Shown here: piece after piece, positions 10,973-43,296 of the stretch
How the letters are laid out: every line of letters starts with the position of its first letter
How positions within the stretch are numbered: position 1 is the first letter of the stretch
Origin: a virus
Virus genome (UHGV): UHGV-0150124
DNA: 53,037 nt
Direction: 5' to 3' (one strand)
Notes under the pieces: generated by a model
Databases searched by the model: none
What the model saw: only the letters and a program-made list of their open reading frames with translations
Told to the model about the DNA's origin: nothing
Translations under genes and position numbers: made by a program

Positions 10973-11184
10973 TAATCGTAGGATAGAAATGCCACCTCTT
11001 TGCCATCATATGTCGTACAGCCGACATACCCATCACCCATATCATGAAGATACCAGGTCTCACCGTCATCAGCCTTTACAGTGAGATCATTAATTTCATA
11101 ATCGGCAAATAATGTAAAAGCTCCAGTGCGCTCCACTACACAAAAATAAGGCATATAACCACCTCTAATTAATAACTTGCTCAA
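10972..11184 (-). CDS. Hypothetical small protein
   Basis: 70-aa ORF between the M-like gene and the moron cassette. Confidence 0.3.
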   Translation of the reverse strand: MSKLLIRGGYMPYFCVVERTGAFTLFADYEINDLTVKADDGETWYLHDMGDGYVGCTTYDGKEVAFLSYD

Positions 11185-11518
11185 ACGTTGCGTTTAGCGT
11201 GTACAAAGGCCCGTCTTTAGTCATGCTCCATTGCCGACAGACAAAAAGCCTTTGCACGTTATCCATTGACGGCGACCAGTAAAAAGCCTCGACCGCGCCG
11301 CGCGCCCTCAAGAATGCTTCCGCCTGGATTGCTACGTTTCCACCATCACCACATCCGGCGCTACTGCCTTTAAACACCAGGGTGTAGCTATCAAGCAATG
11401 GATTGATACCTTTTACCTGTCTTTGCTCATAACCATCGCCCAACTTAACAACAGATACGTCTGGCTTCCTGGTCACGCTGTAGCTTCTTTGCGGCGTCCA
11501 TCTGAACACTTCCGGCAT
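11165..11518 (-). CDS. Minor tail protein M-like
   Basis: 117 aa; matches lambda gpM by eye (FRW...GDGY.QR...FEQV.N). Confidence 0.8.
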   Translation of the reverse strand: MPEVFRWTPQRSYSVTRKPDVSVVKLGDGYEQRQVKGINPLLDSYTLVFKGSSAGCGDGGNVAIQAEAFLRARGAVEAFYWSPSMDNVQRLFVCRQWSMTKDGPLYTLNATFEQVIN

Positions 11519-11685
11519 AAAACCCCCACAAGTTACATTTTGTATATATCTTTACGCGCTTCTACGCGAAAAATAAGATCATTGTCACAATGATTATAGC
11601 TAGTTTACAAAATGGCTTCACATAGCACGCAACAAGATGTATATAGAAAGCAAGAAGAAAGTAGTACCAACGAAGGAGGCCCAAA

Positions 11686-11841
11686 ATGAAACGCTATGTA
11701 GTAGTAATGCTAAATAACGCATTCGAACAAGTGGAAATAGCAATCGTTAAGGGTTTCGACGACGCATTCAAATACGGTCAATTCATGATGAATGCGAAAG
11801 AAGATGAATACCGGGACTTCTTCCTGAAGGCACTTAACTAA
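11686..11841 (+). CDS. Small ORF (51 aa), first gene of opposite-strand mini-cassette A
   Basis: ATG at 11686 after AAGGAGG; preceded by motif GTTTACAAAATGGCTTCA. Confidence 0.3.
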   Translation: MKRYVVVMLNNAFEQVEIAIVKGFDDAFKYGQFMMNAKEDEYRDFFLKALN

Positions 11842-12174: not shown

Positions 12175-12205
12175 CCCCGGCATTGCACCGGGGTTTAGTT
12201 TATTT
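12175..12205 (+). terminator. Intrinsic terminator after mini-cassette A
   Basis: Hairpin CCCCGG-CATTGCA-CCGGGG followed by TTTAGTTTATTT. Confidence 0.5.
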
Positions 12206-14545
12206 GCGGCGAGGTTGCAACATTCCGCCTGGTCTTTGAGATTCCCTTGTTATCATTTTCATGGCTACACGTTCCATTGTTAATTCAAGTCTGCGGCTGT
12301 CTTCGTCGCTGAATCCGTTCGTGGTCTGAATGCTGATACTGACAGGCATACTAATACCGCCACCGCCGCCAATATCACGGCCCGGAATAACTCTGCCGTT
12401 CTCGCCAGGGATCATATATTGATTGCCGTTAGATGTCTGGAATAGCTCCGGCCTGTTGTGTTCCCCTACGCGGTACATATTACCACCAATGACGCTACCA
12501 CCATTAAAGCGACCGCCGCCGAAAATTGACGTAGCCAGCGACATGATCGCAGTGAGCGCCGCCGAACCAGCCGCCGCCCAGCTACCGCCAGTTGACGCCG
12601 CAGTTGCCGCCGCTGCTGGGGCCGCCGCCGCAGCAATGCTTCCCTGAGCTGCTACCGCGCTTGCTGTTGTACTTGTTTGCGTGGCCTTGCTTTGTGTCTC
12701 CATCATGATCTGATCTGCTATCCAGTTTGCAGCTATGTCTGAGAGTCTGTTACCGATATTGCCGAGTATATTGCTTCCTAAGTTAGCAAAAACATCACTC
12801 AATGATTGAGTGCCGTTTAACAGGCCAACAAGCGCATTACTCATTCCGCCTTTAAGGCCATTAACACAATCACCGATAAGGCCGTTTGTGTCGCTTTGCG
12901 CCTGCCATTGTTCCCATTTCAGATCGCGGATCTGTTGCTCATAGGCTAACAATTCCTGTTTCTGTTGCGCTTCAGTAGCGCCCAGGTCTATAAGCATTTG
13001 CTTACGGATGGCCCATTCATTTTGCGCCTGCTGGATGGGGTCAACTTCGCCTTTTAGCTGATCCATCGGGCTTACTATTTGTGACCATTTATCACGCAAT
13101 TCATCTACCGGAATTTGTGCTAATTCTTCTTTCAGTTCCTTACCGATCCCTTTTTGCGCGGCGCGGTACTCAAGGAGTGTGATTTTACCCTGGGCGAATG
13201 CAGCATCAATGGCCTTTCCGTTCTCTAATGCTTTGCGCATAGCTGCGGCGTCTTTATTGTACTGGTCAGAAACGCTTATGCCCTTGTCACCAAGCGTATC
13301 CTCTTTGCTTTTCTTGCTGCCAGTTTTCTTACCCTTTTTAGGTTTATCAACTGGTTTATCGAATCCGGTAATGGCTCCGTCTTTTGGTGCTGTTAACGCC
13401 TCTTTCGCTTCTTCGCCTTTTTTCCTGACCGCATCAAGATCACTCTTAAGCGTCATAACCTGGCCTACGACCGGGCCGAACATTTTTGTCGGATTGCTGT
13501 TTAGTTCTTCCTTGCGCTCGTCTACAATTTCCTTCATCCACTTATATGCATCCATCAGCGCCTTGATTGGCGTCACCATTGCAATGATCTTCTCTGCTAC
13601 CTCGCCAGCCTTCACAGCCACATCATCAAACATGTCGATGAATTCGCCACCAGCCGTTTTGAGTGTATCGAAGCAGGTTTTAGCGAATTTAGCGCCCTCG
13701 CCAAGCCCTTTAACGCCCTTCGTGATTAAGTCGATAGCTGAAACAACGCCATCTGATACGCCGAAAAGATCATCAAGCTGCTCAACAAGGCCCATGATTT
13801 CGACTTTAAGCTCATTCAGGGCCGTGCCGGATGTGCGCGGCAACTGCGCAAACTTCTCGTTTGTTTCCTGCGTAGCCGCCTGGATTGCGTTAACCATCCT
13901 TTCTGCCGTGATCTTACCGTCCAGCATTTCGGCGCGGAACTGGCCCATTGATAATCCCATATGGCGGGCCATTGTTTGTACGATGGTCGGGGTGTTTTCA
14001 AGTAGGCTGTTAAATTCTTCAGCACGCAGCACGCCGCCGTCTATAGACTGGCGGAACTGGCGCATAGAGTTTGACATTTGCTCTGCTGACGCACCGCCTA
14101 ACGCCCCCATTTTCTGAATAGTGCCGACAAGGTTAAGTAATTGACCTTCGGTAGCTGACGTGTTCTTCAGTGAGATAGCCAGGCCTTGCCATAGTTCGCC
14201 AGTATCCTTCAGGCTCTGACCCGTCTCCCTGGATATTGCTTTCAGGCCGTCAAAAACCCGTCCGGCGGACTCTGCATCGCCCGTAAGCATTTTGATTTTT
14301 ACGCGAAGCATTTTTGCTTGCTCCGCCATATCCATAAATTGGCGCACAGCCTCGGCAGCAATTAGCAAATGGATAACCCTGGTCAGTGCCTTGATGGATG
14401 TTTTCAGGGTGTTTACCTGGCGGTCAGCCTGTTTTGCGCCGCGCTCTATACGATCAAAGGCCTGGTCTGCCTGTCGTTGTGCAACGAGAAGTTGACCAGT
14501 TTTCGCATCAACTTCGTAATAAATTGTACCTACACTGGTAGCCAT
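12200..14545 (-). CDS. Tail tape measure protein
   Basis: 781 aa, long helical/coiled-coil body, Gly/Ala-rich C-terminal region; sits between tail chaperone and tail tip genes. Confidence 0.85.
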   Translation of the reverse strand: MATSVGTIYYEVDAKTGQLLVAQRQADQAFDRIERGAKQADRQVNTLKTSIKALTRVIHLLIAAEAVRQFMDMAEQAKMLRVKIKMLTGDAESAGRVFDGLKAISRETGQSLKDTGELWQGLAISLKNTSATEGQLLNLVGTIQKMGALGGASAEQMSNSMRQFRQSIDGGVLRAEEFNSLLENTPTIVQTMARHMGLSMGQFRAEMLDGKITAERMVNAIQAATQETNEKFAQLPRTSGTALNELKVEIMGLVEQLDDLFGVSDGVVSAIDLITKGVKGLGEGAKFAKTCFDTLKTAGGEFIDMFDDVAVKAGEVAEKIIAMVTPIKALMDAYKWMKEIVDERKEELNSNPTKMFGPVVGQVMTLKSDLDAVRKKGEEAKEALTAPKDGAITGFDKPVDKPKKGKKTGSKKSKEDTLGDKGISVSDQYNKDAAAMRKALENGKAIDAAFAQGKITLLEYRAAQKGIGKELKEELAQIPVDELRDKWSQIVSPMDQLKGEVDPIQQAQNEWAIRKQMLIDLGATEAQQKQELLAYEQQIRDLKWEQWQAQSDTNGLIGDCVNGLKGGMSNALVGLLNGTQSLSDVFANLGSNILGNIGNRLSDIAANWIADQIMMETQSKATQTSTTASAVAAQGSIAAAAAPAAAATAASTGGSWAAAGSAALTAIMSLATSIFGGGRFNGGSVIGGNMYRVGEHNRPELFQTSNGNQYMIPGENGRVIPGRDIGGGGGISMPVSISIQTTNGFSDEDSRRLELTMERVAMKMITRESQRPGGMLQPRRK

Positions 14546-14702
14546 GATTTAACCTCATGCAGAATGTGATGTATGTCTCTATTTTATACAAAATGGCTTC
14601 ATTTCAACGAATACATTTTGTATAAAGAAGCTAAAGGGAAGGGATAGAGCAAATGGATTTAAAAGGCCGGATTAACCGGAGGAAGCAAAAGGGGACAAGA
14701 AA

Positions 14703-21148: not shown

Positions 21149-22089
21149 TCTTCGCCATATTTAGCGTGCGCAACTTTATAGTTTTCTTGCGCCCGATCTA
21201 ATATTCTTTCGTTTAATATGTTACCGTCTTCGTCAACTAATACGGTAATCGTGCTACATTTGCAGTTAATTGAATTAGGGGATCTACTCCACCATTCGCG
21301 CTGCTCATCTATGGTGTATGTTTTCCCGTGCCGCTGCGCGTGCGATAGCCTGGTAGTCGGTGACAATGCCGAAATGTGCATTTGCATAGTGCGCAGATTA
21401 AATTCTTCTGTCGCCGCTTCTGCCTCATCCATACGCGCTGTGCGTAACGCTGTGCATATTTCAGTTCGAGCAATACGTTTGCATCTGTATAGCGGTAATT
21501 GCGTCTCCTGATTCAATGTGCGCGCTATTTCCAGTGGGTTTAAACCACGGGCCATGCCTTCAGTTAGTCGGCGGGCCATATCCTTTTTGATCTGTGCTGT
21601 CAGCCCGCGCATTTCCTCAAATACACGGGTACGGACCAGGGCAAGGCGCGTGCGGTAGGTTGTGCTTGATAGTACGGCAGATACATCGGGATAAACGCTT
21701 GAGTACGTGACAGACTGGTTAGCAAGGTTGGCGTATTCCTGTGCCGTGCCTCGCTGATACGCGACCTTCACGTATTCCTGCCAGAACCAAAAACTTTCCG
21801 GGTCGGTTAGCTCGAATATCTCATCAATCATGTCGCTGGCGTCCTCCAGCATGTCATGTAATTCATCCATGTAAATCTGGAAGGTGTATTTCTTATTAAC
21901 AGCCAGGCTATATTGGATTCTGTCCAGTATGGCGATATATGGATCGGCTACTTTTTTCAGGCAGGATTTGAAACGCTTAACAGCACCAGAACGTAACTTC
22001 CCTGTCATGGTCGGATCTTCGGTGTTAGATGGCATTATCGCGGCTGGAGGTATTCGCCTGATTATTTTCTTCACCTTCATCATCGTCAT
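21139..22089 (-). CDS. Head morphogenesis protein (Mu F / SPP1 gp7-like minor head protein)
   Basis: 316-aa ORF directly downstream of portal; conserved IARTE...HG segment typical of this family (by eye). Confidence 0.55.
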   Translation of the reverse strand: MTMMKVKKIIRRIPPAAIMPSNTEDPTMTGKLRSGAVKRFKSCLKKVADPYIAILDRIQYSLAVNKKYTFQIYMDELHDMLEDASDMIDEIFELTDPESFWFWQEYVKVAYQRGTAQEYANLANQSVTYSSVYPDVSAVLSSTTYRTRLALVRTRVFEEMRGLTAQIKKDMARRLTEGMARGLNPLEIARTLNQETQLPLYRCKRIARTEICTALRTARMDEAEAATEEFNLRTMQMHISALSPTTRLSHAQRHGKTYTIDEQREWWSRSPNSINCKCSTITVLVDEDGNILNERILDRAQENYKVAHAKYGEDWE

Positions 22090-23395
22090 CCTCTTCCGTT
22101 TCTACTTCACTGGCTGGGCCATCGTATCCGGCAGCCTCGCGGATCTCATCGCCGCTAAATATTTCTTCACCAGTAGCCAAACAAGCCTGATTGATTTGCG
22201 CCATCTTGTCTGCGGCTTCCAGTAGCTCTGCTTTGGTCATGGCGTTAAGGTCGTCCCATAGCACTGATACATCTACTGGCATACTGATAAGGCGTAGATC
22301 TGCCATCTTGCGGAACAGATCTTCAATCTCGCCACCGATTTCCTCCCTGCGGGTCATGCAGCGGCTGTTGAAGTAACGCAGGTCTTCGGTTGATGCGCGT
22401 TCTCCCTGCTGGTTCCCAACCAGGATGCGGGTTGGAATATCAACACCAGCGGCGGCGGTTTGCAGGTTTACGTCATAGGTTGATGACGGGTCGGATACGG
22501 CAGTAACCAGCGGGCTTACTGTTGCACCCTGTAACGCCATCATTACGTCATTACCCTTATTCATTTCAGCAGTAGCCTCATTGAATCTTTCGCGTAACTC
22601 TGTAACGTCGCAATCGTATGTTGCAGCCAGGGAACGGAAGTCAATATCTTTATCGAACGAAATGGCAAGCTGACGCGCTGCGTTTTTCAGGAATGATTCA
22701 CCACTACCGCCTTCCACTTTTTCCAGTGATACGAATGCGTTGTAGGAAGGTTCAAGGAAAGCGATGACATCATCAGAATAGTCGCCAAAGATGAATATGC
22801 GGTCAGGGTGGATCTTTCTAGCAATGGTCTTACTGTTAATGCGTTCTTTGTATTCCCACCACGTTGGCAGGCCATAGTTTTCATTATCCGGGTTTTCTTC
22901 GAAGTCCTTCGGTGTAAGAGCGCCAGCCCACACAGGGGTAAATTTTGCAATGCCTACGCCTTTTGTCACTGGCTGATCCCACGGCTTGTTATCTCTGATA
23001 TGAATTAACAGACCAGAGTAACGACCAATGAGGCGGCGGCGATCACATTCAGCAACAGTGCGCCAAAATCTGTTGTTAAATTTCTTCTTGATTTCTCTCT
23101 CCCACGGTGTTTCCTTTTTCGCTTTCTCGTCTTCAGTTCCTTCAATCATCTTTGGCTTGGTGCGCCAGCAAGTAGTAACAATCTTTTCTACAGCACCGTG
23201 AGCGATGCCGCCGCGTCTGTACAGTTTGTATAGATCGTGATACGTGATCTCTTCTTTAAATCCGTATTCACTCCACGCAGCATCACGTTTGGCATCTATC
23301 CCCATAGTGAACGGATGTGCCGCTGCATAGCGGGCAAAGGCCGCCTGGCGTTGAGACAAGGCAGCATTAACCGCCAATTCTAAATTGGATGGCAT
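22025..23395 (-). CDS. Portal protein
   Basis: ~456 aa, immediately downstream of large terminase; acidic C-terminal tail; ATG at 23395 preceded by AGGAG (track ORF starts at 23416). Confidence 0.7.
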   Translation of the reverse strand: MPSNLELAVNAALSQRQAAFARYAAAHPFTMGIDAKRDAAWSEYGFKEEITYHDLYKLYRRGGIAHGAVEKIVTTCWRTKPKMIEGTEDEKAKKETPWEREIKKKFNNRFWRTVAECDRRRLIGRYSGLLIHIRDNKPWDQPVTKGVGIAKFTPVWAGALTPKDFEENPDNENYGLPTWWEYKERINSKTIARKIHPDRIFIFGDYSDDVIAFLEPSYNAFVSLEKVEGGSGESFLKNAARQLAISFDKDIDFRSLAATYDCDVTELRERFNEATAEMNKGNDVMMALQGATVSPLVTAVSDPSSTYDVNLQTAAAGVDIPTRILVGNQQGERASTEDLRYFNSRCMTRREEIGGEIEDLFRKMADLRLISMPVDVSVLWDDLNAMTKAELLEAADKMAQINQACLATGEEIFSGDEIREAAGYDGPASEVETEEDDDDEGEENNQANTSSRDNAI

Positions 23396-23491
23396 AATGT
23401 TTACTCCTGAATACATGTTTACGCGTTGCTACGCGAAAAATAGAAAAATTCGTGAGGGATTGTGAGGCAGATTTTGTGTAGCTAATTGAGA

Positions 23492-23538
23492 ATTATTATT
23501 GTTCATCTTCGAAAATTTTTCGAAGTTGATAATAATCA
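23492..23538. other. Long imperfect hairpin in the terL-portal intergenic gap
   Basis: Core palindrome CTTCGAAAATTTTTCGAAG (23507..23525) flanked by ATTATTATTG / TGATAATAAT arms. Confidence 0.4.
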
Positions 23539-23543
23539 ATAAC

Positions 23544-25028
23544 TTAAAACCCTCGCAGGCGCTTAGGTAACATGAGGCCCATCGCCTGTGGCTGGCTTAG
23601 TTCAGTGATACCCCATACCATAGCATCCATACGGTCAGGGGATTTTTTAGCGGTGGCTGGCACGTATTCCATCATTTGATTTTCCAGCGTGTACAGCTCA
23701 CCAGTGTGTGCCACCCTTCCTTGTGCATACAGTGCCGATATTGGCTCGGCGCGGGCGAACTTACCTTTACTTGCATGCACCTTAACAATACGGCCTTTGA
23801 ATCCGGCATTACGCAACGTGGCCTCTGCCATTTCGCCGCCCTGGTTAGTTTCGATAACCATCGCGTCAGCTTCATGGATGTTGTAGGCGTTCATTGATGC
23901 CTGCGCCCAGTCGTTAGGAGACATGCGGCCTGAGTAGTCGCCATCAACAGAATACTGAGCATTCTTACCGCCACCATAGGCGGAACATGCCACGATCCCT
24001 GTTTCGTCAGACTCATCAGATGATGTTGTCGCCGGGTCAATAGCTATTACAGTGCGTATTTTCTCCTGCGTTATCTGCATCCGGTGCGCTGCGGTTATCA
24101 TTGCTTCAGTCCACAATGCACCCTCTTCGTCGAATTTACGCGGGCGCTGCATGTACTGGGCCTCAAATGACCGTCTGTGTGCCTTCAGTCCTGCTTCATG
24201 GCTGTCATTGTGCTTTTTAGGCCATAGCCAGCCATCTGGCAGATTGTGAGGAATGGGGATAGCGAACTCGTTTTCAGGGTACAAATCCCGATAGTCAACG
24301 CTATTGTCGATCTTCACTGGCAGGTTCAGGTGATGCCATTTCTCCCCGCTCCCACCGCGTAGCAGGTAGCCTGACAAATCATCGTAGTGGATGCGTTGCA
24401 TGATGACGATAACAGGCGTTGTTTGCACTGCCAGACGTGAAGCAAGCGTGTCGTTATAGTTAGTGTTAACCTGCTTTCTCACCACGTCAGAGTAAGCGTC
24501 AGCGGGTTTTAATGGGTCATCGATGATTAACGCGCCGTTAAATCCCGGTTCCATATACCCTGCACGGAACCCAGTAACCTGACCAAGCGATGACGTTGCA
24601 TACACGCCGCCGCCGTATTCAGTCCACCACATCGATTTACTGTTGGCATCGTTGCGGATCTTCATGGTCCACATTGCCTGATATTCAGGCGTACAGATCA
24701 TGTTTCTTACTGTCGAGGAATTGAGTAGCGCCAGGTTGTTGGAATAGGAAACGTGAAGGAAGCGTGTGCGGGGATTTATTGCGAGGGACCGCGCCATCAT
24801 ATTGATAGTGGCGATCATGGTTTTGCCGTACCCTGGGGGAATATTGATGATGAGTCGGGTTATCTCACCATTGATAACGCGTTGCAGTGCATCACGGATG
24901 GCTAAATGATGGCCTGAGATTAACATCTTCGTTCCGTTTGCTTGCTTATAGAAGTAGCGATTGAAAAACAGGCCATCGTTTTCACATTTTGACTGAATAA
25001 CCCTTTCTTTGATGGACAACATAATCAC
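23544..25028 (-). CDS. terL: Terminase large subunit
   Basis: 494 aa, Walker-A-like PPGYGKT, acidic nuclease-type C-terminal half; follows terS with overlapping stop-start. Confidence 0.85.
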   Translation of the reverse strand: MIMLSIKERVIQSKCENDGLFFNRYFYKQANGTKMLISGHHLAIRDALQRVINGEITRLIINIPPGYGKTMIATINMMARSLAINPRTRFLHVSYSNNLALLNSSTVRNMICTPEYQAMWTMKIRNDANSKSMWWTEYGGGVYATSSLGQVTGFRAGYMEPGFNGALIIDDPLKPADAYSDVVRKQVNTNYNDTLASRLAVQTTPVIVIMQRIHYDDLSGYLLRGGSGEKWHHLNLPVKIDNSVDYRDLYPENEFAIPIPHNLPDGWLWPKKHNDSHEAGLKAHRRSFEAQYMQRPRKFDEEGALWTEAMITAAHRMQITQEKIRTVIAIDPATTSSDESDETGIVACSAYGGGKNAQYSVDGDYSGRMSPNDWAQASMNAYNIHEADAMVIETNQGGEMAEATLRNAGFKGRIVKVHASKGKFARAEPISALYAQGRVAHTGELYTLENQMMEYVPATAKKSPDRMDAMVWGITELSQPQAMGLMLPKRLRGF

Positions 25029-25510
25029 ACCTCGTCTTCTACTTCCTGGACGATGCTGGCGATCTCTTCTTTCGTGACTTCAACCTGGACGGGCGCTTCT
25101 TCCTTATTGCCAACAATCTCCTGTGTGACACGTTCGCCGTATTTACGCGGTTGCAGTTTTGCCAATAGCCATTTACGCGTTTCAATCATTAATTGGTGGC
25201 GGCGTAGTTGGTCTTTATCAACGTTCTTAGCATCATCAGCTATATCGAGGATCTCATCAGCTAATACCTCGAAGCCGATTTCCTTCGCGCGCATGTACAT
25301 GTCCGAGAATTCCGGCACGTCTCTAAACCATTTCAGGATTGTTGAACGGGTAGGCATACCAGGCATCTTCGAAATTTTGTTAACGCTCTGACCGTCCGCC
25401 ACCAGTTCACAGATTTCTAACGCCTTTTCTTCTGTATAACCATGCGGACGACCCACCCTTTTTGCGGCTGGCTTTTTATCGTCAGCATTTGCCTTTTTAG
25501 TGCGGGCCAT
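25025..25510 (-). CDS. terS: Terminase small subunit
   Basis: 161 aa, N-terminal HTH-like segment, acidic C-terminus, overlaps terL start. Confidence 0.7.
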   Translation of the reverse strand: MARTKKANADDKKPAAKRVGRPHGYTEEKALEICELVADGQSVNKISKMPGMPTRSTILKWFRDVPEFSDMYMRAKEIGFEVLADEILDIADDAKNVDKDQLRRHQLMIETRKWLLAKLQPRKYGERVTQEIVGNKEEAPVQVEVTKEEIASIVQEVEDEV

Positions 25511-28370: not shown

Positions 28371-28397
28371 AAAGCAAAAACCCGGCTCGTGGCCGGG
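28371..28397 (-). terminator. tR'-like intrinsic terminator just upstream of the holin RBS
   Basis: On minus strand: hairpin CCCGGC-CACGA-GCCGGG followed by TTTTTGCTTTG, then GGAGGA and the holin ATG. Confidence 0.55.
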
Positions 28398-28460
28398 TAA
28401 TTACAATTTCGCATTGTTAGGAAATATTTTAATCTATTTGTTTTTTATGCGCGATTATGG

Positions 28461-28643
28461 CTACAAATCACTAACTTTCACCAAATCGCCATTATCAAGC
28501 CAGATTTTAATTGTTTCTCGCGTCGTCTTGATGATTGGCGCTACCCACTCACCATCGCTAACGCAAACGCGAATATCACCACCCTCTACGCGATAAAACA
28601 TCTTGTCGATTAGTGTTACGGCGTATATACCATCTTCAATCAT
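28461..28643 (-). CDS. Hypothetical small protein
   Basis: 60-aa ORF with AGGAG RBS. Confidence 0.4.
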   Translation of the reverse strand: MIEDGIYAVTLIDKMFYRVEGGDIRVCVSDGEWVAPIIKTTRETIKIWLDNGDLVKVSDL

Positions 28644-32320: not shown

Positions 32321-32510
32321 CCTTCACCTCGCGACGATAGATTTCTACTGGCTTAACCGGAATAGCGTTAAAATCCCCTTCATCCAGTGCGGCAATAAAC
32401 GTTAGCGCCAACCGTGCTTCAACACCGCTTAAATACTTGCACCATGCCTCACCGTTATAATCTTCAAAAAGAATAACCGCTTTTTTCATGTTTATCTCTT
32501 GTTGTTTCAT
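32310..32510 (-). CDS. Hypothetical protein
   Basis: 66-aa ORF starting at the Q stop codon. Confidence 0.4.
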   Translation of the reverse strand: MKQQEINMKKAVILFEDYNGEAWCKYLSGVEARLALTFIAALDEGDFNAIPVKPVEIYRREVKDEA

Positions 32511-33232
32511 TATTCACCCCGTGTCACTCGTTTAATTTCGTTATCAGCCCGCGCCTCTTCTTTGAACAATTCAGTAATGGCGTCTTCATAGAAAGCACGG
32601 TATTTCTTCCACCACGTTGATCGGCTTACCGGAAATACAAGCTGATTAACCGCACGCCGGACAAGATCTACAGGGAAACGCGAGTACCCGCGCCCGCCGC
32701 AATGCTGGCACGTTTTGAACACTGGCATTTCCGCTGCTTCACTGGCTGCTTTATCCGGTATCTCGCCGCGCCCTTTGCATCGTTTACAATGATTACGAAC
32801 TTTTCCATGCCCCTTGCATTTTTTGCAAAGGTGTTTTTCTCCGTAGTCGTCAAACGTAAATTTATATCCGCCGCAATCCATACAAGTTTTTTCTGTCGCG
32901 GCACTCTGGCAGTAATCCCGAAACGCGAAAACGGCAACAAGAATAATAAGATCATTGCGTTTGTCCTCGTCCAGCTCTATGACGTATTCGTAATCTTTTG
33001 CCATAGCTCTTAAACGCTCTGTAAGCAAAACTACGGCCCTGTGTTTTTCGGCTTGCGATAGTTCCATCTTTCCCAAAAAAGCGCTATAGCCAAGCTCTAC
33101 GCGCGATTGCGCCATACCCGCAGCGGTTAGCGCATCCGTCGTATTAAGAGCGTCCGGGGACGTGCCCCGGCTTTCGTCAGATAATCGCGGTGATTTAGGA
33201 AAGTGGAATTTTAGAATGGATTCTAAATTCAT
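32510..33232 (-). CDS. Q: Late-gene antiterminator Q (lambda type)
   Basis: 240 aa; N-terminus MNLESILKFHFPKSP vs lambda Q MRLESVAKFHSPKSP; Cys-rich zinc-binding segment CMDCGG...CKRCKGRGE...CQHCGGRGYSRF. Confidence 0.85.
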   Translation of the reverse strand: MNLESILKFHFPKSPRLSDESRGTSPDALNTTDALTAAGMAQSRVELGYSAFLGKMELSQAEKHRAVVLLTERLRAMAKDYEYVIELDEDKRNDLIILVAVFAFRDYCQSAATEKTCMDCGGYKFTFDDYGEKHLCKKCKGHGKVRNHCKRCKGRGEIPDKAASEAAEMPVFKTCQHCGGRGYSRFPVDLVRRAVNQLVFPVSRSTWWKKYRAFYEDAITELFKEEARADNEIKRVTRGE

Positions 33233-34420: not shown

Positions 34421-34732
34421 AAAAACCACCCCGATTATTTTTGATTCTCTGTTTCGTTCAGCCTTTCGGCGTGTCCGGCCCTTAGCCAATGTTCTAAGCA
34501 TTCGTTGCACTCGTTACAGCCTCCTTTCTTCGTGCTGCATACATTGCACATTGCACGCATAACGCTTTCTCGTTCATAGTCGTCATGCCATTGGTAATCA
34601 TCAAAAGACATAATGCTCTCTCCTTTTCAGGTGATTTCTACGCATTTCAGCGCTGCCGGATTTTTAAAGAGCATTTTGTTTGCTTGAAGTATACAAAATG
34701 GATATGCCATAACAAGGTGAAAAGCGCCATTA

Positions 34733-34748: not shown

Positions 34749-34770
34749 CAGTGACGCCATTTTGTAAACT

Positions 34771-41552: not shown

Positions 41553-41843
41553 TTAATGGTAGCGGACTTTATCCAGGGGTTTTTCCCCTAAATGGCGTGG
41601 TTGCGTTGCGTGGTAGTAGCTGCCGCTTTCATTTTCCGTATACCATTTTACTGATCCTTTGCGACGTTCTTTAATGCTATTTGGTTTGCATCTTTCCTCG
41701 TTTGCAAATCGAATAGCTTTATCCACATTGTCTGTTTTATTGATTGCAGGTGATGATTTTCTTTCGTTTTCTCTTTTTATCCTTCTGCGTTCCCTGGCAT
41801 TCATTTTGCTATCACATTTACCATATATAATTGTAACGCTCAT
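41553..41843 (-). CDS. N-like transcription antiterminator
   Basis: N-terminus MSVTIIYGK...NARERRRIKRENER is an arginine-rich motif resembling P22 gp24 / lambda N; first gene leftward of the repressor. Confidence 0.65.
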   Translation of the reverse strand: MSVTIIYGKCDSKMNARERRRIKRENERKSSPAINKTDNVDKAIRFANEERCKPNSIKERRKGSVKWYTENESGSYYHATQPRHLGEKPLDKVRYH

Positions 41844-41898: not shown

Positions 41899-41938
41899 TG
41901 CCGCACTTCCAGCGGCTGACCAGATTGTTAATGAGCGG
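41899..41938 (-). promoter_or_regulatory. Candidate nutL (boxA CGCTCATTA plus boxB hairpin GCCGC-UGGAAGU-GCGGC)
   Basis: Read on minus strand 56-95 nt upstream of the N-like start. Confidence 0.4.
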
Positions 41939-42310
41939 CTTAACATCTTTCAACTAATCCCGCAATCATCGCCGTTCCCGGCGTGACCTTGCTCACTCCA
42001 AGCAAGCTGACTCGTCGCCTTGCGTGCGGTTTCGTGGGGGATGTAACGCTTTAAACACCCCATGCGCCTTGTTATCAGTGCCGCTTTCGGTCCCCCATCG
42101 GGGAGTTACTCCACGGTTGACAAGGTGTTAAGCCTGATTTTTAAAGTGCCAGGAAGTTGCTTTTGTTACCTGCGCCCTTCCTTTGACTCGCAATATACGC
42201 CCCGTAAAACATCGAGTCAATCCATTTTGTATACTTTTTTAAAATATTTTATATGCCATTGATATTTAAATAATAAATAACGTTTTCTGTTTACGTTTTG
42301 GTGTTTTCCA

Positions 42311-42991: not shown

Positions 42992-43296
42992 GTCGCTACC
43001 CTATAACCTCAAAAAGTTTGATGCAAGTCACAAAACGTGTATTTTAAGCCTTGATCTTAAAATTCCATTTTGTAAACTTGCAGACAAGGTAAGGCCATAC
43101 TTGCAAAGACGCAAGGAAAAAGATAACGGAAGGCACAAAAAGGCACTTACCTTATGCTCTTTAAAAATCCGGTGTCGCTGCGAAGCGAAAAACAAATATC
43201 ACGCAACGGCGGGATCTGTTGAGCGGTCAGTCACTGCTATCTAATGCTAATGGGATGCCCGCCCGCGCGTTCACTCTAACCATAGGAGAAAATGCG
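42992..43296. promoter_or_regulatory. Immunity-region intergenic control region (candidate operators and rightward promoter)
   Basis: 305-bp gap with repeated CTTGCA / TGCAAG half-sites and palindrome CTTGCAAAGACGCAAG; no Cro-like ORF found. Confidence 0.4.
43153..43190 (+). promoter_or_regulatory. Candidate nutR (boxA-like TGCTCTTTAA plus boxB-like CGCU-GCGA-AGCG)
   Basis: Resembles the nutL candidate (CGCUG.GAAG core). Confidence 0.35.

Follow-up and report, generated by a model that had tools for sequence, protein, structure and literature searches.

A short intergenic element conserved upstream of two late genes in mEpimmI-group coliphages and found again in satellite-like islands

The window considered here, i.e., the whole stretch of 53,037 nucleotides that was analysed, derives from a temperate coliphage of the mEpimmI group (mEp021-like), with a terminase-portal region 88-91% identical to that of phages mEp010, mEp013, mEp021, mEp044, mEp515 and mEp554 as well as MagusPhagus. 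To our knowledge, nothing has been published on late-gene control in these phages beyond the presence of a Q-like gene. The group itself was defined only in 2025; according to PMC11893012, it matches lambdoid phages in frequency among human gut samples. Its late genes are located on the minus strand (Table 1), and upstream of two of them, the portal gene and the minor tail gene M, the same 25-mer, TTTACGCG(Y)T(K)CTACGCGAAAAATA (matching on the plus strand in both cases), is found exactly twice in the window, at 23418-23442 (site 1) and at 11551-11575 (site 2). An earlier note on this DNA had already pointed to an element shared by two late genes, which is borne out by the two copies and by their strong conservation in relatives; its coordinates were right for site 2, while the start of site 1 had been placed one base off, at 23417. 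A third copy was not detected in the window even when up to three mismatches were allowed, and 100 shuffles gave 0 matches. Independently, a repeat search recovered the same pair as a 35-nt unit with 86% identity. The distance from the end of the element to the start codon is 26 nt for the portal gene, whose ATG follows an AGGAG, and 36 nt for M; the hexamer TATTTT contained in the element lies 41 and 51 nt upstream of the respective start codons. On either strand, both phage copies are compatible with two drawings, a CGCG hairpin of 4-5 bp and a direct repeat, TACGCG-N4-TACGCG.

Since the tail genes are interrupted by opposite-strand cassettes, the second copy resides in a divergent intergenic region, flanked by M (minus strand) on one side and by a cassette starting at position 11686 on the other. 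Hence, the earlier placement of the element inside a polycistronic late operon is too simple for the M copy, although both copies indeed precede late genes. The cassette consists of a 51-aa ORF (11686-11841, plus strand) and a ParE-like toxin gene (PF24732; 11859-12113, plus strand) and resembles a toxin-antitoxin pair. It lies between the tape measure gene and M, head-to-head against the latter, and is kept in all relatives. Between the site-2 motif and a conserved TATAAT, the window additionally carries a perfect 17-bp palindrome, ATCATTGTCACAATGAT (11578-11594, plus strand), which is peculiar to its lineage, the corresponding sequences of relatives being only partly palindromic.

Table 1 Features of the late region and of the two copies of the element
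Feature	Position	Strand	Remark
terS	25025-25510	minus	
terL	23544-25028	minus	
Portal gene	22025-23395	minus	
Tape measure gene	12200-14545	minus	
M (minor tail, tail-tip)	11165-11518	minus	
Site 1 core motif TATTTTTCGCGTAGCAACGC (late-strand reading)	23423-23442	minus	unchanged throughout the phage relatives and in islands L305, L306, L307, L309 and L310
29-nt module TATTTTTCGCGTAGCAACGCGTAAACATG	23414-23442	minus	phage site 1 identical to FDAARGOS_1284 island; flanks unrelated
58-nt block: T-rich tract, motif, AGGAG Shine-Dalgarno sequence, portal ATG (23395-23393)	23393-23450	minus	essentially invariant among 35 unique site-1 sequences
Conserved C(T/C)CACAAT upstream of site 1	23459-23466	minus	TTGTG (plus strand) invariant amid variable neighbours
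Site 2 core motif TATTTTTCGCGTAGAAGCGC (many relatives: CATTTTT...)	11556-11575	minus	upstream of M (ATG 11518-11516)
35-nt repeat unit, site 2	11541-11575	minus	partner 23408-23442
Invariant TATAAT, 17 nt upstream of site-2 TATTTT	11593-11598	minus	GTGAAG another 17 nt upstream
Predicted late promoter GTGAAA-16-CATAAT	28454-28481	minus	from promoter scan; -10 hexamer abuts CGCG
tR'-like terminator	28398-28380	minus	follows predicted late promoter
70-bp imperfect palindromic insertion (bounds ±2)	23476-23545		directly after terL stop; holds long hairpin

Both copies occur at the same positions in all relatives examined, comprising 7 GenBank phages, about 45 IMG/VR contigs and 24 metagenome contigs, and they are furthermore present in 36 of 5,426 complete E. 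coli genomes. The search of related phages proposed in the earlier note, which had counted absence from them against the element, thus found it in every one. As relatives were also retrieved with motif-free flanking anchors, the motif's own variation is visible: about 55 site-1 and 75 site-2 instances share an essentially invariant core, and over these roughly 130 phage instances the conservation of the core far exceeds that of the intergenic flanks. At site 1, conservation collapses beyond the 58-nt block, save for the C(T/C)CACAAT further upstream; at site 2, the motif is one among several conserved blocks. Inside the motif, only three 'loop' positions vary, besides single changes in loop length, in the 'TA' and in the outer stem. 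The motif is the best-conserved non-coding sequence found in the mEpimmI late region. Mini-ORFs ending at its TAG were considered and discarded, as their frames differ between the sites and are broken by variants in A-run length.

Beyond the group, the element is lacking at the portal junctions of the more distant phages ES18 and S107 (56-59% amino-acid identity), and a capsid-protein scan of species genomes yielded no further relatives. A scan of the same kind of genomes with the motif itself returned chance matches and a tandem decamer of Planctomycetota, (TTTACGCGAA)n, but nothing else, and a scan of IMG/VR with a 16-nt core gave mostly chance matches together with one unrelated gut-phage family. 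The decamer underlies a dispersed repeat of about 22 copies in the Planctomycetota MAG ELA667 (JBAXUS01), with T-runs and (CGGCAA/CGGCGAA)n-like tracts on its sides; its match to the pattern of the phage motif is due to chance and does not reflect a relationship. In the gut phage contigs, which are of Firmicutes type (IMG/VR 3300045988), CTTTTATTTTTCGCGTAGAAA is located just after a terminator-like hairpin in several flanking contexts, and it is probably an unrelated conserved intergenic signal coinciding with 17 nt of the coliphage motif. A strand bias of CGCGTAAA (7 versus 0) is accounted for by in-frame Arg-Lys codons. Finally, a literature search for the motif string gave nothing relevant, and the motif is not described in the paper on the mEpimmI group (PMC11893012). 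Among the E. coli prophages of the group, the portal homolog WP_235384629.1 of NZ_CP091020.1 is named 'anti-CBASS protein Acb1 family protein' in RefSeq, which is probably an annotation artefact.

A third context of the element was found outside the phages. In E. coli FDAARGOS_1284 (NZ_CP070170.1, 1339806-1347837; island L305), the element is matched while its flanks are not, and 29 nt are identical to phage site 1. This copy lies between two genes of like orientation in a small island, itself located at the intZ/yffS (CPZ-55, eut) locus. The gap recurs with about 80% identity in diverged versions of the island in GF3-3, ES5, K99B and SC423, as well as in an 8-kb plasmid-like linear record. 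Each island contains a single motif copy in the orientation of its genes, heading an operon that includes TerS and ending approximately 38-43 nt before a start codon led by a Shine-Dalgarno sequence. What is invariant across the alignment of phages and islands is the linear sequence (T/C)ATTTTTC(G/A)CGTAG(C/A)A(A/G)C(G/A)C and nothing else, as the 3' CGCG arm, equivalent to the second direct repeat, has turned into CGCA, CGCT or CACC in the islands without compensation. Among islands whose adjacent first genes share only 38-46% protein identity, 17 nt of the core are identical, which argues for strong selection on the exact sequence. Homology to the phages ends sharply at the module, and no flanking genes were captured along with it.

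The islands encode an intZ integrase, a 63-aa HTH_17 (AlpA/Xis-type) protein, a series of small genes without assigned function and an Sf6-type TerS (PF20901), the latter belonging to the same family as the TerS of the window at 32-37% identity. No capsid genes, tail genes or primase were seen in the approximately 7 kb of island. With this gene content, the islands look like minimal satellites of a PICI-like kind; how Gram-negative PICIs are generally laid out is described in PMC10111431. By virtue of the shared TerS family, the eut-locus islands would be satellites of an mEpimmI-type helper. A common regulator was sought among the HTH proteins of both partners; the island protein and the Xis-like HTH protein of the phage are only 26% identical, and the island protein is absent from the GenBank phages.

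The earlier note spoke of conserved leader elements, described a long hairpin in the same gap as the site-1 copy and suggested RNA structure prediction as a check. For the small CGCG hairpin, a structural premise is not upheld. At site 1 it has a folding energy of -6.2 kcal/mol, unremarkable against shuffled sequences (z = -0.5), although local formation is predicted there, at pair probabilities of 0.9-1.0. At site 2, an extended hairpin reaches -10.6 kcal/mol (z = -2.4), yet within 212 nt of context its pair probability is 0.03 and it is not the favoured fold. Among 26 distinct variants, no pair has changed on both sides and every covariation measure stays at or below that of shuffled controls. 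A U-A to C-G switch in the extended site-2 stem was rejected as covariation, since it passes through a common C.A intermediate and thus reflects phylogenetic linkage. Disrupting or deleting the hairpin in silico leaves the accessibility of the Shine-Dalgarno sequence unchanged, and Rfam gave no match at gathering threshold in the whole window, the two element regions reaching chance level only (15-18 bits versus 46-63 needed). Together with the uncompensated decay of the 3' arm in islands, these results mean that the small hairpin is not the conserved feature.

The long hairpin described earlier in the gap between terL and portal does exist, its central palindrome CTTCGAAAATTTTTCGAAG being located at 23507-23525, and for the 150-nt gap as a whole, the folding energy is -25.8 kcal/mol (z = -2.8). 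It is not, however, a conserved part of the leader, as it is absent from most relatives. It is held by a 70-bp insertion that splits a small native palindrome, GGATTTTAAAATC, in its middle. The insertion occurs in none of the 7 GenBank relatives, in about 14 of 50 IMG/VR site-1 instances (as two variants), about 70% of the IMG/VR relatives lacking it, and in 9 complete E. coli genomes; in viral contigs, it is found at the terL-portal junction only. The outer stem is weakened in the commoner variant and the central stem is broken in one variant, indicating that the structure is not under selection. Terminator features are missing from the insertion, which holds just weak, palindrome-symmetric promoter-like hexamers. 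A 53-bp homolog (85-87% identity) resides within a hypothetical ORF annotated in an island adjoining eutA, in ATCC 8739 as well as 16 other genomes; hence, the palindrome sequence, too, has moved between phage and eut-locus islands, and both non-coding modules of the terL-portal gap have homologs in islands at the CPZ-55/eut locus. The 70-bp palindrome is an accessory insertion outside the conserved element, and the hairpins that drew attention to the motif are incidental.

Judging from its sequence and placement, the motif probably is a control signal for late gene expression, and of the classes initially suggested, a late regulator site is the most plausible one. More specifically, it is tentatively read, at somewhat less than an even chance, as a DNA-level control module of late transcription common to helper-type phages and satellites. 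The functional core would be (T/C)ATTTTT-C(G/A)CGTAG-(C/A)A(A/G)C, composed of a -10-like TATTTT (with A2 and T6) followed by a GC block and TAG. RNA polymerase holoenzyme would contact TATTTT, either as the -10 hexamer of an internal, factor-dependent late promoter with its start near the TAG, or as a sigma-dependent pause element, in which case the -10 hexamer proper would be the conserved one 16-17 nt further upstream, namely CACAAT (site 1) or TATAAT (site 2). A phage-encoded or polymerase-borne late factor may recognise the adjacent CGCGTAG, an obvious candidate being the Q82-family antiterminator encoded at 32510-33232. Thereby, the module would boost or re-license transcription into the genes from portal to tape measure and into M, while the same module at the head of the satellite TerS operon would couple that operon to the late phase of the helper. 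Sharing of late promoter signals between helpers and satellites is established for P2/P4 and 80alpha/SaPI.

Several observations argue for a function at the DNA level, namely the strict conservation of sequence with 0 covarying pairs, the retention of the 5' core where the 3' arm decays in islands, the portability of the 29-nt unit and its single orientation relative to genes in three contexts. The reading is also favoured by likeness to the predicted late promoter of the phage, by the conserved upstream hexamers and by the presence of a Q-type antiterminator (PF03589, Q82/P22 gp23-type). At 16-18 nt upstream of TATTTT, both phage sites carry a second conserved hexamer. In the C(T/C)CACAAT of site 1, either a -35-like CTCACA or a -10-like CACAAT may be seen, spaced 18 and 16 nt, respectively, from TATTTT, and the GTGAAG/TATAAT pair of site 2 is comparable to the predicted late promoter GTGAAA-16-CATAAT and could likewise act as a promoter. 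The region of the predicted late promoter and terminator is kept in MagusPhagus, where the terminator stem shows a compensatory change. Located at 28374-28481 (minus strand), upstream of the holin gene, this region resembles the lambda pR'-tR' unit, i.e., a predicted promoter followed by a strong terminator, and its leader of about 70 nt holds the -10-like sequences TAGATT and TAAAAT. The Q-like gene lies about 4 kb upstream of this unit, with about 20 small ORFs in between.

Against this stands that TATTTT matches the -10 consensus in only 4 of 6 positions, and CATTTT, the site-2 form of many relatives, in 3 of 6. In a scan for sigma-70 promoters (at least 9/12 matches, 16-18 nt spacing, A2 and T6 in the -10 hexamer), neither site was called on either strand, the best reading being CTCACA-18-TATTTT at site 1 with 8/12; a promoter here might still depend on a factor or consist of a -10 hexamer only. 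No conserved -35 hexamer is present at site 2 or in the islands, and a conserved block downstream of the hexamer is unusual for an ordinary promoter. For the pause reading, the islands offer no obvious promoter 16-17 nt upstream. The likeness to the late promoter is short, with [TC]AT[AT][AT]T.?CGCG occurring 8 times in the window, and a regulator shared by phage and islands was not identified. Orientation and distance to start codons would be predicted equally well by an element acting in RNA.

Such an RNA-level cis element, the linear UAUUUUUCGCGUAG... in the late mRNA leaders of portal, M and the island operon, is the strongest rival, unlikely on balance yet to be taken seriously. It might act as an RNase E-type processing site, in which a U-rich tract and a GC clamp leave a protected 5' end, or as the site of an RNA-binding protein tuning translation or stability, with the small CGCG hairpin possibly helping in the phage. 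The motif keeps a constant orientation relative to transcription in all contexts and lies in untranslated leaders, 26-43 nt upstream of starts led by Shine-Dalgarno sequences; moreover, late transcription probably yields one antiterminated read-through transcript containing both copies. An RNA element would also fit the invariance of the whole 58-nt leader at site 1, the tolerance of loop-length and loop-sequence polymorphisms in the phage and the local prediction of the site-1 hairpin. One stem change amounts to a U.G wobble in the late-strand RNA only, but a lone wobble-compatible change is a coin-flip event, no covariation was found, and the hairpin arm decays in islands. With about -6 kcal/mol, the core hairpin does no better than shuffles at site 1, and at site 2 it is unfavoured in long context; likewise, the predicted indifference of the Shine-Dalgarno sequence and the missing Rfam match speak against this reading, which in addition leaves the conserved upstream hexamers CACAAT and TATAAT unexplained.

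Two further readings stay at the DNA level, and both appear improbable. The motif could be an operator or roadblock, rather than a promoter, for a dedicated DNA-binding protein; in one version, tandem TACGCG-N4-TACGCG with 10-bp phasing would be bound by a protein of the ribbon-helix-helix or winged-helix class, the neighbouring antitoxin for instance, or would serve as a 'stoperator' silencing late genes in the lysogen. Oriented sites in intergenic gaps of late operons have a precedent in the stoperators of mycobacteriophage L5. The perfect direct repeat with its 10-bp period in both phage copies, the strict sequence conservation without covariation and the position of site 2 in a dense divergent regulatory region beside the toxin-antitoxin-like pair would agree with an operator. 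Nevertheless, the second repeat is lost in islands (CGCATA, CGCTTA, CACCAT), one lineage has 9-bp spacing, and the candidate operators of the main repressor in the immunity region (CCATTTTGTA; TTTTACG-GGG-CGTATAT) are unlike the element, of which no third genome copy exists. For the 51-aa ORF as ribbon-helix-helix binder, a single-sequence AlphaFold model gave one helix and no sign of such a fold, the model being uninformative. Nor is a roadblock obviously needed, given that every cassette gene points away from the late genes. Similarly doubtful, and closer to the module proposed above, is a role as a portable loading or licensing site for the late machinery, be it the Q82-type antiterminator or sigma-dependent pausing combined with a late factor, that satellites mimic. 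Its two uses in the phage would re-arm polymerase where opposite-strand cassettes and untranslated gaps interrupt the operon, and the eut/CPZ-55 satellites would copy the motif in order to have their TerS operon fire only in the late phase of an mEpimmI helper. If true, this would represent satellite regulatory mimicry of an antiterminator site.

That the motif has no present function is very unlikely. The phage copies would then resemble each other through gene conversion, and the island copies would be debris of recombination or late-gene capture from helper prophages, in line with loop variants that swap between sites 1 and 2 as expected for ectopic conversion, with the island homolog of the adjacent 70-bp palindrome and with the known capture of helper late DNA by Gram-negative PICIs (PMC10111431). 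Drifting debris would, however, hardly stay far more conserved than the intergenic flanks in roughly 130 phage instances, remain identical across islands with neighbouring proteins of 38-46% identity, end sharply without captured flanking genes and keep its orientation and placement in every context. Least credible of all is a sigma-70 promoter on the plus strand (TTTACG-17-TAAGAT / TAGAAA), from which the opposite-strand cassette would be transcribed at site 2 and an antisense RNA reaching into terL at site 1: hexamers with 4/6 and 4/6 matches and a 17-nt spacer do exist at both window sites, and conservation at site 1 ends just past the putative -10, but the promoter is not called by the scan, the site-2 '-10' of most relatives is TGAGAA, TGAGAT or TGATAA (lacking A2 and often T6), a better cassette promoter of PR architecture, TACAAAATGG-C-TTCACA-17-TATATA, follows downstream, and the islands have no plus-strand gene to drive.

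Compared with known systems, the proposed DNA-level late-transcription module would behave most like the late-promoter and antiterminator-loading signals common to helpers and satellites. As in P2/P4 (Ogr/Delta) and 80alpha/SaPI (RinA/LtrC), a short motif precedes helper morphogenetic genes and heads a satellite packaging operon, its orientation is constant, and it is far better conserved than the surrounding DNA. In contrast, the P2/P4 sites are TGT-N12-ACA dyads near -55 of recognisable promoters and are bound by a zinc-finger activator, whereas here the conserved block is situated at or just after a -10-like hexamer and the helper-satellite pairing is inferred from the TerS family alone. 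Parallels with the qut and AlpA sites (lambda, 21, 82; P. aeruginosa PalpB) lie in the PF03589 Q-type antiterminator, in the -10-like hexamer with its adjacent conserved block, in the combination of '-10 hexamer + CGCG' shared with the predicted late promoter and in the second -10-like hexamer 16-17 nt upstream at both phage sites. The resulting arrangement, CACAAT-16-TATTTT at site 1 and TATAAT-17-TATTTT at site 2, has the geometry to be expected of a promoter plus sigma-dependent pause, and Q and AlpA act at sigma-dependent pause/loading sites of the general kind described in PMC9371919. Known Q sites, however, occur once, where the late operon begins, with a terminator after them, whereas the present copies are internal to the late region and have no terminator directly downstream, and the islands lack an upstream hexamer and an obvious upstream promoter. 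An intrinsic terminator was called neither at the two sites, where the U-run of the late strand precedes the hairpin and the A-run of the plus strand follows it, nor between the motif and the next gene.

A lambda-type nut site was considered as well. The small GC-stemmed hairpin of the phage copies, with its 6-nt purine-rich loop, is about the size of the phage's own boxB hairpins (nutR1 GCCGC-UGGAAGU-GCGGC, nutR2 and nutL), which belong to the kind of nut site used by the N-like Gp17 of the group. Yet boxA (CGCTCTTTAACAA-like, expected about 8-10 nt upstream of a boxB hairpin) was found only at 41937-41925, 34673-34661 and 43155-43167 and near neither copy, the loop neither begins with G nor resembles GNRA, islands have lost the hairpin, and the copies are located in the late region instead of early operons; hence, this identity was rejected. 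The three nut sites of the phage itself can be read at 41900-41937 (minus), 34640-34673 (minus) and 43155-43185 (plus). Of these, nutR1 comprises boxA CGCTCATTAACAA and boxB GCCGCUGGAAGUGCGGC, while nutR2 and nutL combine boxA TGCTCTTTAAAAA with short GNRA-type boxB hairpins, and an N-like ORF with an Arg-rich motif is located at 41553-41843. Start-associated sequences of Cluster K and stoperators of Cluster A mycobacteriophages resemble the element as short, oriented, highly conserved motifs in small gaps upstream of starts within long operons, but they occur in 10-30 copies per genome, with stoperators matching the repressor operator, as opposed to two copies here that are unlike the operators of the immunity region.

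In practical terms, the motif offers a concrete 20-nt handle for finding the late regulator of a newly recognised, gut-prevalent phage family. Its reuse predicts that the eut-locus islands are satellites of the mEpimmI group wired into the late programme, and, should the motif act as RNA, it would be a sequence-specific leader signal common to a phage and its parasites.

A second recurring motif of the window, GAAGCCATTTTGTA / CCATTTTGTA, has 16 matches at up to three mismatches compared to 7.2 expected. The sites include 11606-11619 (minus), 14587-14600 (minus), 14609-14622 (plus), 34692-34705 (minus), 34753-34766 (plus), 42218-42231 (plus) and 43061-43074 (plus). In the form TACAAAATGG-N-(-35)-17-(-10), it abuts the -35 hexamers of PR and of the plus-strand cassette promoters beside M and the tape measure gene, and on the PL side it overlaps the -10 hexamer. 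Probably, this motif is a shared operator or upstream promoter element linking the accessory cassettes to the immunity circuit.
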